This document shows positions 11,307 through 17,565 of a DNA stretch of 64,000 nt, one piece after another. The notes under the pieces were generated by a model, which did not search any database, was not told the DNA's origin, and saw nothing but the letters and a program-made list of their open reading frames with translations. Made by a program: the position numbers and the translations under genes. The stretch's first letter is position 1. Each line of letters opens with the position of its first letter. Source of the stretch: Escherichia phage LHE83; the sequence record OQ561750. One strand, 5' to 3'.

Positions 11307-11828
11307 ATGGCACACTTTAACGAATGCTCACAACTTATTGCTGGTGTTGATAAAGCTGAGGAAGCTTATTTTAATGCTCTGATTCACGAAGATAAAGACC
11401 CTCTGCAGGTTATGCTTGATATGCAGAAATCATTACAGGTCCGTTTGGCTAAAGATAAACCTGAATATAACCGTCATCCTGATGACTTGGCTACTGCAGG
11501 TGAAGTTGTTGATTGGTTGCGCAATCAGAAAGATTATATTGATGATGAATTCCGCGAACTTCTGACTTCTCTTGGTGGCATGAGCAATGGCGAAAAAGAT
11601 GCGAGCGCTGTATGGAAGCCTTGGAAAGCTCAACATGCTGAACGTCGTGAAACCCTGATTAACGATTTGTCTCCTGAAGACCAGCTCGAAATTAAATTCG
11701 AAATGATTGATATTCTGCACTTTGTTCTGAATATGTTCCAAGGTCTTGGACTGACTGCTGAAGAAATCTTTAAACTGTATTACCTGAAAAATGCCGAGAA
11801 CTTTGCTCGCCAGGACCGAGGTTATTAA
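11307..11828 (+). CDS. 56: dCTPase/dUTPase (MazG-like) gp56
   Basis: Size, position and similarity to T4 gp56 by recollection. Confidence 0.8.
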   Translation: MAHFNECSQLIAGVDKAEEAYFNALIHEDKDPLQVMLDMQKSLQVRLAKDKPEYNRHPDDLATAGEVVDWLRNQKDYIDDEFRELLTSLGGMSNGEKDASAVWKPWKAQHAERRETLINDLSPEDQLEIKFEMIDILHFVLNMFQGLGLTAEEIFKLYYLKNAENFARQDRGY

Positions 11829-11869: not shown

Positions 11870-12103
11870 ATGGGTGGTTTCGTTAATATTAAAACCTTTA
11901 CGCATCCGGCTGGTGAAGGTAAAGAAGTTAAAGGTGTTGAAGTATCTGTCCCGTTTGAAATCTATTCAAACGAGCATCGTATTGCGAATGCACACTATCA
12001 GACATTTCCTTCTGAAAAGGCGGCATACACTACTGTAGTAACTGATGCAGCCGATTGGCGAACTAAGAACGCGGCGATGTTTACGCCTACCCCAGTAGTT
12101 TAA
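11870..12103 (+). CDS. soc: small outer capsid protein Soc
   Basis: GFVNIKTF...AHYQTFPSEKAAY matches T4 Soc by recollection. Confidence 0.85.
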   Translation: MGGFVNIKTFTHPAGEGKEVKGVEVSVPFEIYSNEHRIANAHYQTFPSEKAAYTTVVTDAADWRTKNAAMFTPTPVV

Positions 12104-12197: not shown

Positions 12198-12407
12198 ATG
12201 TTAAATCGTTGGATTAAACCAAATAAAACTTTAGATGAAATTATCGCTAACCACGTATTGAAAAAGTACTTTTATACGCCTTGGTATACCGAAGTTATTG
12301 TCCATTCATTTATGATGCATGAAGACGGTTCTATCGAATTTAATGCCGAAATCCGTCACGAGACTGATGATATTGATAAAGTTGAATTTAAACGAGGTTT
12401 CCTATGA
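12198..12407 (+). CDS. hypothetical protein
   Basis: SD GAGGAG. Confidence 0.5.
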   Translation: MLNRWIKPNKTLDEIIANHVLKKYFYTPWYTEVIVHSFMMHEDGSIEFNAEIRHETDDIDKVEFKRGFL

Positions 12408-12727
12408 TTCGTTGGCTTAAGAATTTTTTCAAGACCAAACCTGGTGAAGGGGTGGTTCCTATCTCAGGTCTGAAGGAATATGTTTATGTGGGCGATGGTA
12501 TGATGGAAGAAGTTATCCGTCAACCTGAAAAAGCCGGTAATGTAGGCCCGGGTGCCCTTCCTTTGAATTCTAAAAAGTTTAAAGAGCATCTAGAAGCTCG
12601 TCGCACAAGCCATATTGATACTACTCCTATTATGGTTGCGGCTGCTGTCAGTTCTTGGACTGGTGATTCTTCTTATTCGTCTTATGACTCAGGAAGCTGT
12701 GACTCATCGTCCGGCTCGTGTGATTAA
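12404..12727 (+). CDS. hypothetical protein (Ser-rich C-terminus)
   Basis: ORF. Confidence 0.5.
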   Translation: MIRWLKNFFKTKPGEGVVPISGLKEYVYVGDGMMEEVIRQPEKAGNVGPGALPLNSKKFKEHLEARRTSHIDTTPIMVAAAVSSWTGDSSYSSYDSGSCDSSSGSCD

Positions 12728-12927: not shown

Positions 12928-13091
12928 CTACTGAAGAGGCCGAAAAACAAGCTAAAGAGGCACTGGATTTGCTTCTTAAAATTGGTAGTAAAATGATGAA
13001 AGAAAACGAGAAATACATCCAAGAAAATAAAATTCCGGATGGTCCTTTAGTAGGTAAACTAAGAAGAGGAAATCATAATGAAAGTTTATGA
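12924..13091 (+). CDS. small hypothetical protein (55 aa)
   Basis: Below track cutoff; ATGA overlap with upstream stop. Confidence 0.3.
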
Positions 13092-13566
13092 ACTAGAATT
13101 CCATGTACGTGATTCATCTGGACAGACACGTCCTTATGATGCTACAGTGTGTCTTATCTTTGTCGACAATGGTACGAATTCTATAACCCAGTTAGAAACA
13201 CGATTAAAAGATATTAAGCTTCCAGAAAATATTATGATGAAGGCTTACCATAACAAAAATGTTGATGTTGCTGAAGATTGTCCTTTTAGCCTGGCTGAAG
13301 CATTACATATCAAGGGTTATCGCCATCCGGACCCGTATGGCGAAGGAACAATGGACATTTTCTATAAAGATACCGATAGAATGTCCAACGAACGTCTTAA
13401 AGGTCGTACTTATCTTATTTCCGCTACCGAAGACCTTATTGAAGTTGAACGTCAGATTTGGAAGCACTTTGATATTGGATTGCGCTTTACCATGACTGAA
13501 GACGCTATTCGTGATGCTAAGGTACGAGCTCGTATGTACGAGTACGGTCCTATCGGTGGTTACTAA
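13078..13566 (+). CDS. hypothetical protein (mrh-region)
   Basis: ORF with SD AGAGGA. Confidence 0.55.
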
Positions 13567-13754
13567 TGGACTTATTTGATATGTTTGTCATTCCGGACCC
13601 TGAGCCTGAAACAACTCAGGAGCCGCCTGTTGACCTTGTCAACGAACTTGATATGATTATACAGAAGCATGGTTTTAAGTTGCCTAAAGATGTTCTTAGT
13701 GACCTAGCTTCTTATTACTTAGACCCTCCACCCTGGGCTCCTTGGGTAAAATAA
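13566..13754 (+). CDS. hypothetical protein
   Basis: ORF. Confidence 0.45.
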   Translation: MDLFDMFVIPDPEPETTQEPPVDLVNELDMIIQKHGFKLPKDVLSDLASYYLDPPPWAPWVK

Positions 13755-13756
13755 AG

Positions 13757-13785
13757 TTTTACACCTCCTCCCTTCATGTTATAAT
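13757..13785 (+). promoter_or_regulatory. early promoter (TTTTAC, 17 bp, TGtTATAAT)
   Basis: Hexamers/spacing; downstream hairpin GACCTC/GAGGTC contains SD. Confidence 0.65.
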
Positions 13786-13809
13786 GACCTCTAAATCACT
13801 GGAGGTCAT

Positions 13810-14379
13810 ATGAACATCGAACAAAAATGTCTTTATCAAGACCGAATCAATTCCAAATTCTCAAAACACGAACAGAATCTTTTAGAAAAATGTCTAGATG
13901 CTAAAAAGGACCCTAACTTCCATTACGACCTTGATAAGCTAGTTCGTAAGCATGTTACTTCAGCGGTTCCGGTAGAGCTTTATCGTGGGATTACCGCTAT
14001 GGAACTTGAGCAACTTGAAGTTCTTTCTGTTGGGTGCCAGTGGTCTCCTGGCCGGGTTACTTCTTTTAGTACACAATACTCACAGGCTCGTCAGTTCGCA
14101 GGGGCATGGGAATATGGAACCAGAACCATTTTAAGTCTCAGGAATGCACCGTTCATTTTCGACTACTATAACCATGCTATCGACCTTGTTCTTGCAGGGA
14201 ATGTAGATGAGCTTGAAATAGATGAAACCCGTATAGACCTCTACGATATGGTCGAAACTGAATGTGAGTTCATGGTCTCCAGCCAATCACGATTTGAGAT
14301 TGTGGAAATCGAAACTATCAAAAGGGACCCGTACGAAATCGAGTACAAAACAATTCATTTAAAAATGTTGGATTTTTAG
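13810..14379 (+). CDS. modB: ADP-ribosyltransferase, ModB-like
   Basis: TSAVPVELYRGI (Arg motif) and C-terminal acidic ExE-like region; paralog of next gene; position as T4 modB. Confidence 0.55.
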   Translation: MNIEQKCLYQDRINSKFSKHEQNLLEKCLDAKKDPNFHYDLDKLVRKHVTSAVPVELYRGITAMELEQLEVLSVGCQWSPGRVTSFSTQYSQARQFAGAWEYGTRTILSLRNAPFIFDYYNHAIDLVLAGNVDELEIDETRIDLYDMVETECEFMVSSQSRFEIVEIETIKRDPYEIEYKTIHLKMLDF

Positions 14380-14433
14380 TTTACAGGCAAGGAAGCTTGT
14401 GGTACTATCTTTCTATCAACTGAGGAGAATAAT

Positions 14434-15048
14434 ATGTTATATCCAAGCCATAAATTAGCAGAATTTATCAACAACGCCAAATGCGATGATTTCCGTGAGA
14501 ATACTCAGATAGAAATTGATGAGGTGTATTCTGATTTAGAACAGAGCACGCTCTGGCAGTGTATGGAAAATAAACCAGATACTATCCAGGAAACTCTGAA
14601 CAAAATTATTCGTAAGAACCTGACTTCTGCAGTGCCTGATAAGTTGTATCGCGGAATTTCTAAGAAGACTATGGCATATCTTGAATCTACGATGTGCGTA
14701 GGTGCTGTAATTGAATTCGACCGTGTGATGAGCTTCTCAAAAGATTTCAATGTAGCTCGTAACTTCGCATCTTATAACTTCTACGGCACATTTAATATCT
14801 TTTGTATTAATGATGCACCATTTGTGTACAATTATCAGGAAGAAATCTTTAAAATGTTATGTGCCGCGCCCCCTGAAGAGTTCCCAGGTGCATTTCCTGA
14901 ATCTACCCGTGTAGCAAACTTACAATTAATCAATGATGAAGATGAGATGATGTTCCCTGCGGGAACTACGCTGAGCGTAGACTCTATTGAGAGAAATCCT
15001 AAATGGAATAATTACACCATTTGGAATCTTTCCGTTCTTTCTTACTGA
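14434..15048 (+). CDS. modA: ADP-ribosyltransferase, ModA-like
   Basis: TSAVPDKLYRGI and EDEMMFPAG (ExE) motif resembling T4 ModA. Confidence 0.6.
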   Translation: MLYPSHKLAEFINNAKCDDFRENTQIEIDEVYSDLEQSTLWQCMENKPDTIQETLNKIIRKNLTSAVPDKLYRGISKKTMAYLESTMCVGAVIEFDRVMSFSKDFNVARNFASYNFYGTFNIFCINDAPFVYNYQEEIFKMLCAAPPEEFPGAFPESTRVANLQLINDEDEMMFPAGTTLSVDSIERNPKWNNYTIWNLSVLSY

Positions 15049-15186
15049 ACCACCCGGTTTAATTGAAAGGCAAAGTCCTTGATTCATTATACCGTCGAAA
15101 ATTTAAAGCAAAAAAGTGTTTACTTTACCGAGCAACATGATACTATAGACCTATCAGCTAATCGTCCGTAAGATGAGAAAAATATT

Positions 15187-15936
15187 ATGCCTACTATTAA
15201 AACTAACGATGAATTTGAGTTAAAGGTTTACAAACGTCGCGAACACACTAAAGCCTCTGCCAAAAAACGTGGTAAGGACTTTAACCTGTCTAGTAAGTAC
15301 GTTCGTAGACTTCTTGAACAAAAAGTGTGTGCATATTCAGGCGAGCGCTTTGATGAGAATTCAGATAAAGATAAGATTTCGTTTGAACGCTTTAACAACG
15401 ATATAGGTTATATCGAAGGTAATGTAATCCCGGTTAAAGTTAAGTACAACGGGTTGCGAGCTGATTTGTCTTTAGATGAATTGAAACGTGCACAGACTCG
15501 TTTAGCGTCCCGTATTTCAGGTGGTTCTAAAATGCCTAATAGTTTTAAAGTTACCCCAGATAATTATTATAAAATTCGTAAAATAGTTAAAAATATTAAA
15601 GATACCCAAAGAGGTCTTAAAAAGCGTGAAAAACGTCTTAAGGACCTTATTAAATCAGGAGCCACTGATAATACCCCTTCTGTCATCGCGGTTAAGGCCC
15701 GTATCCATGGTTCTAACGCTTCAATAGGTACTATGGAAAAGGGTCTTAAATCTTTAATTGGTGGGCCTGATTGGCGTGTCAAGTTTAAATTGTCTGAAGC
15801 AGAAACGCGTTACGATATGTATGATAAAATTATTCAAGGTCTGGAGCGTTTAGAACACCTTTCTTTTATTGACAAAATGAAGTTGAAAAAAGGTCTTCCG
15901 CTGAATGCTTCAATTTTTTCACTGATTAGAGGTTAA
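15187..15936 (+). CDS. Srd-like protein (by position)
   Basis: 249 aa between mod genes and dda; N-terminal CAYSGERF...SFERFNNDIGYIEGN HNH_3-like pattern. Confidence 0.35.
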   Translation: MPTIKTNDEFELKVYKRREHTKASAKKRGKDFNLSSKYVRRLLEQKVCAYSGERFDENSDKDKISFERFNNDIGYIEGNVIPVKVKYNGLRADLSLDELKRAQTRLASRISGGSKMPNSFKVTPDNYYKIRKIVKNIKDTQRGLKKREKRLKDLIKSGATDNTPSVIAVKARIHGSNASIGTMEKGLKSLIGGPDWRVKFKLSEAETRYDMYDKIIQGLERLEHLSFIDKMKLKKGLPLNASIFSLIRG

Positions 15937-15940
15937 CGTG

Positions 15941-16237
15941 ATGTACTATGCATACGTATTAGTTCACAAGGACAAAGACGGGTACGAAATTCCATTAGAA
16001 GAGGCCGGTGAAGTGACTTTGTATTCGACAAAGATTGGAGCCGATACCGCTCTATCCGTTTATGAAATGTCAACAAAAAGATATCTTCGGCTTGGACGCC
16101 TTGAAACGGTGTGCACACCTAGAAAATGGTGGTTTGATAAGTGGGAAACTAAAACAGTATATCCTACCGAAGAACGAGCCCGAGAACTTAAATTAGTTTT
16201 AGACACTTTATATGTTAAGCGAGTAAAATTGGCATGA
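15941..16237 (+). CDS. hypothetical protein
   Basis: ATG 3 nt downstream of track GTG start; SD AGAGG. Confidence 0.5.
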   Translation: MYYAYVLVHKDKDGYEIPLEEAGEVTLYSTKIGADTALSVYEMSTKRYLRLGRLETVCTPRKWWFDKWETKTVYPTEERARELKLVLDTLYVKRVKLA

Positions 16238-17565
16238 TTACATTTGAAGACTTGAACAACGGCCAGAGGACGGCCTTTAAAGAAATCATTGAAGCTATTA
16301 AACGACGTAAGGGTGAATGGATTACATTGAACGGTCCTGCTGGTACAGGTAAAACAACCCTTACCAAATTTATTCTTGACCATCTAGTCAAGAATGGTGA
16401 ACTCGGAGTTATTTTGACTGCGCCTACTCATGCGGCCAAAAAGGTATTGTCGAAACTCGCAGGTCAAGAAGCATCAACAATTCATAGAATTCTAAAAATT
16501 AACCCTACTACGTACGAAGACCAGGACATCTTTGAACAACGCGAAGCTCCTGACTTGAGCAAATGTAATGTTCTAGTTGTTGACGAAGGCTCGATGATTG
16601 ACGGTAAGCTGTTTAAGATTATTGAATCCTCCGTGCCACCATGGTGTACTGTATTAGGGATTGGCGACAGAGCTCAGCTACAGCCAGTGGAACCTGGAAG
16701 TGATGGTAGCCCTCAGTTGTCTCCATTCTTTACACATCCAAAAATCAAACAATTACATTTGACTGAAGTGATGCGTAGTAATGCTCCTATCATTGAGGTG
16801 GCTACTGAAATCCGTAATGGTGGGTGGTTTAGAGATTGTGTATTCGAAGGACATGGTGTCCATGGTTTTAAATCCCAAACAGCATTAAAAGATTTTATGA
16901 TGAATTATTTTTCCATTGTAAAAGATGCTGATGCCCTGTTTGAGAATAGGATGTTTGCTTATACCAATAAATCGGTTGAAAAGCTGAATAGCATTATTCG
17001 TAAAAAGCTTTATGAAACCGATGCACCTTATATCAAGGGCGAAATCCTAGTGATGCAAGAGCCTTTTATGAAGGAACTTGAATACGATGGTAAGAAATTC
17101 TCTGAAACCATTTTTAATAACGGACAAATGGTTCGTATTCTGGATGTGAACCATACCTCGTTGTTTTTGTCTGCTAAGGATGTAGGCACTCGTCAAATGA
17201 TTAATTACTGGGACCTGCAAGTAGAATCTGTTGATGAAGACGACGAGTACTATGTAGAGCATTTAAAGGTTATCGATGAGGCTTCAGTTGAGAAGTTCCA
17301 TTATTTCTTGGCTAAGGTTGCTACAGAGTACAAAGCCATGCGTGGTAGTGGTAAGAAACCTAAGTGGGCTGATTTCTGGAAAGCCAAGCGAATGTTCAGT
17401 AAGGTTCGAGCTCTTCCTGTGAGCACTGTTCATAAATCCCAAGGACTTACAGTCCAAAACAGTTTCATCTATACTCCATGCATGCATATGGCTGATGCGA
17501 ATTTAGCTTCACAGCTGGCTTATGTTAGTATTACTCGTGCTCGTACTGACGCCTACTACGTTTGA
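16234..17565 (+). CDS. dda: Dda SF1 DNA helicase
   Basis: Walker A LNGPAGTGKTT; 443 aa. Confidence 0.85.
   Translation: MITFEDLNNGQRTAFKEIIEAIKRRKGEWITLNGPAGTGKTTLTKFILDHLVKNGELGVILTAPTHAAKKVLSKLAGQEASTIHRILKINPTTYEDQDIFEQREAPDLSKCNVLVVDEGSMIDGKLFKIIESSVPPWCTVLGIGDRAQLQPVEPGSDGSPQLSPFFTHPKIKQLHLTEVMRSNAPIIEVATEIRNGGWFRDCVFEGHGVHGFKSQTALKDFMMNYFSIVKDADALFENRMFAYTNKSVEKLNSIIRKKLYETDAPYIKGEILVMQEPFMKELEYDGKKFSETIFNNGQMVRILDVNHTSLFLSAKDVGTRQMINYWDLQVESVDEDDEYYVEHLKVIDEASVEKFHYFLAKVATEYKAMRGSGKKPKWADFWKAKRMFSKVRALPVSTVHKSQGLTVQNSFIYTPCMHMADANLASQLAYVSITRARTDAYYV

Follow-up and report, generated by a model that had tools for sequence, protein, structure and literature searches.

The question raised by this locus is whether two small, adjacent genes of Escherichia phage LHE83 specify active ADP-ribosyltransferases (ARTs) of the kind represented by ModA and ModB of phage T4, and, if so, which of the two corresponds to which T4 enzyme. 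The genes lie within the 64,000 nt stretch of DNA that was analysed (sequence record OQ561750), referred to here as the window. A first-pass annotation had proposed that positions 13810-15048 hold two adjacent ModA/ModB-like paralogs, and both open reading frames, ORF1 and ORF2, were recovered at exactly these coordinates and are clearly paralogous, with a BLASTP E-value of 1e-26 and 31% of residues identical across 184 aa. The pair very probably represents the early-expressed NAD+:protein-arginine mono-ADP-ribosyltransferases of a Dhakavirus, occupying the ModB and ModA positions, with the targets of the individual paralogs being the most tentative part of this reading.

Gene order and genome relatives

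The features of the locus are as follows.

11307..11828, gp56 dCTPase/dUTPase (Pfam and PHROG matches)
11870..12103, Soc (Pfam and PHROG matches)
13078..13566, T4_MRH-family protein (Pfam and PHROG matches)
13758..13785, + strand, promoter-like site 5' of ORF1 (TTTACA-16 nt-TATAAT with TG, 11/12 consensus match)
13810..14379, + strand, ORF1, 189 aa, Mod-family ADP-ribosyltransferase, modB position
14380..14408, + strand, promoter-like site 5' of ORF2, within the 54 nt that separate it from ORF1 (TTTACA-17 nt-TACTAT with TG, 9/12 consensus match)
14434..15048, + strand, ORF2, 204 aa, Mod-family ADP-ribosyltransferase, modA position
~15118..15146, + strand, promoter-like element 5' of srd (GTTTAC-17-TGaTACTAT)
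15187..15936, + strand, Srd (Pfam and PHROG matches)
16234..17565, Dda helicase (Pfam and PHROG matches)

The gene order of the window, 56-soc-mrh.2-mrh.1-srh-modA.4-modA.3-modA.2-ORF1-ORF2-srd-dda.1-dda, follows the same arrangement as in Bp7 and T4 (in T4, mrh.2-mrh.1-mrh-srh-modA.4-modA.3-modA.2-modB-modA-srd-dda.1-dda), and places the two ORFs between modA.2 and srd, on the strand of dda. Their location between soc and dda, like that of modB-modA in T4, had been pointed out in the first-pass annotation, and agrees with the Pfam and PHROG matches of the neighbouring genes as well as with the T4 and Bp7 annotations. Strong Shine-Dalgarno sequences, read directly from the DNA, lie just 5' of ORF1 (GGAGG) and ORF2 (GAGGAG).

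A megablast search with positions 13000..16300 retrieved 49 phage genomes at a query coverage of at least 80%, the best relative being Escherichia phage QL01 (97.0% identity), followed by vB_EcoM_FB, Bp7, WG01, IME08, and JS10-type phages, all members of the genus Dhakavirus. Judged by its nucleotide identity to QL01 (97%), the window is that of a Dhakavirus, a JS98/Bp7-like relative of T4. The gene pair is already known, and is annotated in near-identical genomes. The modB and modA genes of other dhakaviruses (YP_007004159 and YP_007004160 in Bp7, and those of JS10, IME08, QL01, PSD2002, and vB_EcoM_005) are the same genes with identical neighbours, and across the locus they share 96-97% nucleotide identity with the window, differing by only a handful of substitutions. 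The closest GenBank proteins were 99.5% identical to ORF1 (phage PSD2002) and 99.0% identical to ORF2 (vB_EcoM_005). In Bp7 the upstream gene is annotated as modB and the downstream gene as modA, and relatives carry either these names or 'ADP-ribosylase'.

Several differences in the surrounding genes were apparent. The segF homing endonuclease gene, found in T4 between gene 56 and soc, is absent from that position in the window, and there is one T4_MRH-family gene (13078..13566, named modA.3 in Bp7) compared to two, mrh and modA.3, in T4. An mrh.1-like ORF (12404..12727, + strand) specifies a protein of 107 aa with a C-terminal, low-complexity tail rich in Ser, Asp, and Cys (…SSWTGDSSYSSYDSGSCDSSSGSCD). 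The Srd homolog (15187..15936, + strand) matched PHROG 1400, 'Srd anti-sigma factor' (E 7e-93), and its N-terminal ~115 residues also matched PHROGs for HNH endonuclease, endonuclease, and endonuclease VII (E 2e-16 to 3e-6); the gene is 750 bp in the window, compared to 666 bp as annotated in Bp7. A small, modA.2-like ORF also occurs 5' of the ART gene of Klebsiella phage SAKp28 (2212..2388). There, as in several other records, the modA.2-like ORF is labelled 'molybdenum ABC transporter periplasmic molybdenum-binding protein', which is almost certainly a mis-annotation that has spread because modA is also the name of a bacterial gene.

Family membership and predicted catalytic residues

Both proteins matched PHROG 832, 'RNA polymerase ADP-ribosylase' (E 1.5e-37 for ORF1 and 3.6e-44 for ORF2). 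When compared by BLASTP with the T4 enzymes (sequences from NC_000866), ORF1 matched ModB (35% identity, 82.8 bits, E 5e-24) and gave no match to ModA, while ORF2 matched both ModB (32% identity over 197 aa, 89.4 bits, E 2e-26) and ModA (39% identity over 167 aa, 83.2 bits, E 4e-24). Homologs annotated as ADP-ribosylases are present in more than 1000 phage records. Scans of the two proteins against Pfam-A (a set used without PF26816) and NCBIfam returned nothing above threshold; PF26816.1 is the precomputed Pfam assignment on all 67 database homologs. Sequence searches of the PDB, both with the single proteins and with a 69-sequence profile, found nothing significant, the best ART being Vis (E 0.17), and this sub-threshold profile alignment paired YRG with YRG, SFS with STS, and ExE with EAE. 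These comparisons support, with high confidence, membership of ORF1 and ORF2 in the T4 ModA/ModB family of arginine-specific mono-ADP-ribosyltransferases, as the first-pass annotation had suggested.

A TSAVP..LYRGI block had been described as common to both proteins, and it is present in each (VTSAVPVELYRGIT in ORF1 and LTSAVPDKLYRGIS in ORF2). The arginine of LYRG, considered from the start to be the candidate catalytic residue, aligns with the corresponding Arg of T4 ModA and ModB. The predicted catalytic residues are R59 (LYRG), S85 (SFS), and E151-C-E153 in ORF1, and R73 (LYRG), S100 (SFS), and E169-D-E171 in ORF2, and these motif columns line up with LWRG/LYRG, SAS/SFT, and EQE in T4 ModA and ModB. 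The sequence EDEMMFPAG, previously noted in ORF2 as resembling the ExE motif of T4 ModA, is likewise present, and its ExE aligns with those of both T4 proteins.

Predicted structure

AlphaFold2 models, built from 69-sequence alignments, had a pLDDT of 90.8 and a pTM of 0.85 for ORF1, and a pLDDT of 92.6 and a pTM of 0.86 for ORF2. Both opened with a helical N-terminal region, after which came a mixed beta core. The first strand of this core bears the Arg at its end (56-60 in ORF1, 70-74 in ORF2), the next conserved strand contains the Ser (84-87 and 99-102), and the second Glu stands at the opening of a strand that follows a long helix (153-156 and 171-174). Such a placement of the triad is that expected of R-S-E ARTs, as in the C3, VIP2, and iota-type enzymes.

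When the models were compared with the PDB by Foldseek, all 50 best matches of each were R-S-E ARTs (probability 1.00, E 3e-6 to 8e-5, TM 0.4-0.58), and included XopAI, HopU1, C3 exoenzymes, Certhrax, ExoS/T, Plx2A, C3larvin, VIP2, CDTa, iota toxin Ia, and Tre1. The top matches were Certhrax, C3, and VIP2 for the ORF1 model, and XopAI, HopU1, C3, and Certhrax for the ORF2 model. The toxin ARTs (C3 exoenzyme, Certhrax, VIP2, iota toxin Ia, CDTa, HopU1, XopAI, and ExoS/T) share the fold and the R / S-x-S / E-x-E residues with the modelled proteins at a sequence identity of only 9-17% (TM 0.4-0.58). Unlike them, the phage enzymes have their own N-terminal helical domain and would act within the infected cell on bacterial proteins of transcription and translation. 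Far closer were Mod-family models in BFVD, a database of predicted viral structures, to which the ORF2 model aligned with TM scores of 0.83-0.86, including a Tequatrovirus ModA from Shigella phage Sf22 (TM 0.86, rmsd 3.0 Å). No solved structure of a Mod protein was found in the PDB sequence searches, and a 2025 preprint likewise describes ModB as being without a crystal structure.

The first-pass annotation had named absence of the R-S-E residues on structural comparison as evidence against its proposal; in both AlphaFold2 models the R, S, and ExE residues lie on the expected elements. The models support an R-S-E ART fold for both proteins, in which the appropriate secondary-structure elements carry the triad.

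Relationship of the paralogs to ModA and ModB

Two Mod copies are found in Tequatrovirus, Mosigvirus, Gaprivervirus, and Dhakavirus, and a single copy is present in each of Winklervirus X20 and a Klebsiella phage. In their positions, ORF1 corresponds to T4 ModB (NP_049636, 207 aa), an R-S-ExE ART that occupies the upstream slot between modA.2 and modA, and ORF2 to T4 ModA (NP_049635, 200 aa), the downstream slot directly 5' of srd. The LYRG, S-F-S/T, and E-x-E motifs of ORF1 and ModB all align, but ORF1 is 18 aa shorter, lacks ~15 residues at the N-terminus as well as some of the loop that precedes the ExE, has ECE in place of EQE, and has Ser for Pro past the ExE. ORF2 and ModA share the APxVxNxQE and DExExMxPAG blocks, but the N-terminal helical region of ORF2 and its LYRGISK sequence are more like those of ModB and the single-copy homologs, and ORF2 is the more acidic protein (net charge -11, compared to -3 for ModA). 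Neither net charge nor pI separated ModA-like from ModB-like proteins.

In a neighbour-joining (NJ) tree of 77 sequences (300 bootstraps), ORF2 grouped with the Gaprivervirus and Mosigvirus downstream copies (98% bootstrap) and ORF1 with the upstream copy of Mosigvirus (100%), the Gaprivervirus upstream copy falling outside of the ORF1 clade, while the nodes linking either clade to T4 ModA or ModB had bootstrap values of 6-45%. Quartets drawn from 500 bootstraps paired ORF1 with ModB and ORF2 with ModA in 262 cases (52%), joined ORF1 with ORF2 against ModA with ModB, as in an independent duplication, in 187 (37%), and gave the crossed pairing (ORF1 with ModA, ORF2 with ModB) in the other 51. 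Four-point distance sums were 2.84 for the syntenic pairing, compared to 3.35 and 3.41 for the alternatives; the point-estimate NJ tree, on the other hand, placed ORF1 and ORF2 together against ModA and ModB. The best guess is the syntenic assignment, with ORF1 being ModB-like and ORF2 ModA-like. One-to-one orthology with T4 ModB and ModA draws mainly on gene order and is only weakly indicated, so the partition of targets between the paralogs has to be inferred. Counting against it is also that both ORF1 and ORF2 resemble the single-copy Winklervirus and Klebsiella phage enzymes more closely than they do T4 ModA or ModB. The weakness of the orthology is mirrored in the varying database labels of ORF2-type proteins, these being modA in JS10, Bp7, and IME08, and modB in UniRef for phage VR5, with the pair named modB_1/modB_2 in fDHCT2.

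A possible, though doubtful, alternative is that both proteins are active Mod ARTs but are not one-to-one orthologs of the T4 pair, having arisen by independent duplication or gene conversion, with targets split differently. ORF2, for example, could be a ModB-like enzyme that targets translation and performs RNAylation, and the target of the ORF1 clade could be a separate one. Such a history would fit the 187 of 500 quartets and the point-estimate tree that join ORF1 to ORF2, the poor support of the deep NJ nodes, and the exclusion of even the Gaprivervirus upstream copy from the fully supported ORF1 clade. It would also fit the reciprocal best matches by bit score, since the best T4 match of ORF2 is ModB and the best match of ModB in the window is ORF2, and the ModB-like N-terminal region of ORF2, which is 35% identical to ModB compared to 27% to ModA and displays the ModB-like sequences EQSTLWQCME and LYRGISK. 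The ORF1 clade, in addition, has a shorter N-terminus (~15 residues missing), and a Ser replaces the near-universal Pro four residues past the ExE (Ser in 9 of 77 sequences).

Against this, synteny is kept across four genera, the four-point sum clearly favours ORF1 with ModB and ORF2 with ModA, as do 262 of the 500 quartets, and ORF1 has no detectable match to ModA. The catalytic core of ORF2 is 41% identical to ModA and 33% to ModB, and in structure as well as core sequence it lies nearest to Tequatrovirus ModA. Its ModB-like N-terminal features are also seen in the single-copy enzymes, and so are probably ancestral, T4 ModA being probably the diverged form.

A more specific proposal, which we regard as unlikely, is that the ORF1 clade of Dhakavirus and Mosigvirus makes up a third subtype of Mod enzyme, directed at a separate host target, while ORF2 combines or swaps the roles of ModA and ModB, including RNAylation. 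The first part of this proposal comes from the truncated N-terminus, the Ser for Pro exchange, and the separately supported clade, and the second from the retention by ORF2 of the ancestral, ModB-like N-terminal domain. Less specifically, the Ser and the short N-terminus of the ORF1 clade, together with its shortened, lower-confidence loop before the helix leading to the ExE (residues 131-140 of ORF1, pLDDT 62), could conceivably affect the choice of substrate.

Apparent catalytic integrity and selection

T4 ModA and ModB bear the R-S-EXE motif of arginine-specific ARTs (Wolfram-Schauerte et al., PMC10468400), and in T4 ModB the R73A/G74A exchange abolished both ADP-ribosylation and RNAylation (PMC10468400). 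R73-G74 of ORF2 aligns with R73-G74 of T4 ModB. Across alignments of 69-77 family members the R-S-ExE triad was invariant, and in the 69 homologs there were ten invariant columns, namely Met1, one Lys, R-G, S-F, another Phe, another Arg, and both Glu. The residues in the invariant motif columns are R59, G60, S85, F86, E151, and E153 in ORF1, and R73, G74, S100, F101, E169, and E171 in ORF2, and, as far as sequence can indicate, both proteins look catalytically intact.

The first-pass annotation had regarded the acidic motif of ORF1, ETECEF, as less canonical, and had suggested that its targets or activity may differ as a result. The sequence ETECEF is indeed present, but the E-C-E that it contains is the commonest variant of the motif, as the middle residue of ExE is Cys in 30 of 77 sequences, Asp in 16, Ala in 9, and Gln in 7, and its glutamates are invariant (n=69). 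Since ECE is the commonest form, and since E151-C-E153 is in register with EQE of T4 ModA and ModB and EDE of ORF2, the motif gives no grounds for expecting different chemistry, targets, or activity.

Compared to Bp7, ORF1 had a dS of 0.365, a dN of 0.023, and a dN/dS of 0.062, and the values for ORF2 were 0.407, 0.046, and 0.114. There were 7 amino acid differences in ORF1 and 14 in ORF2, none of them at motif positions. The low dN/dS, a sign of purifying selection, and the unchanged motif residues indicate that both genes have been kept as functional proteins, and make a pseudo-enzyme unlikely. It is very improbable that one of the paralogs, most plausibly ORF1, is catalytically impaired or repurposed: ORF1 is the shorter protein, with Ser for Pro past the ExE and a lower-confidence loop at 131-140, but its motif residues are invariant family-wide, its E-C-E is the commonest ExE variant, its dN/dS is below that of ORF2, and its predicted fold is intact, with active ARTs as top PDB matches. 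The reading was rejected on the invariant motif residues, dN/dS, and ExE variant counts.

A chance likeness of the motifs, in small early proteins of no relation to the Mod family, has next to no probability of being the correct account, for although Pfam-A and NCBIfam scores were below threshold and no PDB relative was found by sequence, the idea is refuted by the PHROG matches (E 1e-37 and 4e-44), the BLASTP matches to T4 ModA/ModB (~1e-24), the ADP-ribosylase homologs in more than 1000 phage records, and the ART fold recovered from the models by Foldseek.

Promoter-like sites

The site before ORF1 (13758..13785) has the T4-early-type elements GTTTAC and TGnTATAAT, and those before ORF1, ORF2, and srd resemble T4 early promoters (review PMC2988021). 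The srd element was read from the sequence and is absent from the list of the automatic scan. In all, 10 promoter-like sites were present in the region compared to a shuffle mean of 8.8, a number not above that of shuffles. From their positions, ORF1, ORF2, and srd each appear to be served by their own putative promoter, and the sites at 13758..13785 and 14380..14408 may function in this way. The T4 modB and modA genes share an overlap of 4 bp, leaving no intergenic space, whereas ORF1 and ORF2 are separated by a 54-nt gap that contains a promoter-like site. Separate promoters, if used, would be a small organisational difference from T4. A terminator-like hairpin at 14381..14402, overlapping the ORF2 promoter-like site, is weak (3 GC pairs), and hairpin counts were not above those of shuffles, so no feature was called.

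Proposed function and significance

In T4, ModA targets Arg265 of RNA polymerase alpha, and ModB targets rS1, EF-Tu, and trigger factor, and also performs RNAylation (PMC2988021, PMC10468400). With the pair read as Mod-family ARTs in the ModB and ModA positions, each protein would be a single domain of ~200 aa, in which an N-terminal helical bundle precedes the R-S-E ART core. The roles of the individual residues are taken from R-S-E ARTs that have been characterised: NAD+ would be bound by the beta1 Arg (R59 in ORF1, R73 in ORF2) and the Ser of S-F-S (S85, S100), the second Glu of ExE (E153, E171) would promote release of nicotinamide, and the first (E151, E169) would direct transfer onto the arginine guanidinium. 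After infection, strong early promoters of the sigma-70 type would allow transcription of both genes by host RNA polymerase, and their products would then modify host transcription and translation proteins. Based on gene order and core similarity, ORF2 would most likely modify Arg265 of RNA polymerase alpha, as does T4 ModA, and ORF1 ribosomal protein S1, EF-Tu, and trigger factor, as does T4 ModB. By analogy with T4 ModB, ORF1 may also perform RNAylation with NAD-capped RNA.

Among T4-like phages the pair is a textbook module of host takeover, and its presence carries little weight alone. The idea of a non-canonical motif in ORF1 can be dropped. Of wider relevance to the family is that the naming of modA and modB outside of the T4 genus is based on gene order, and that the RNAylation activity of T4 ModB and the polymerase specificity of T4 ModA should be extrapolated with caution to either paralog of JS98-type phages.
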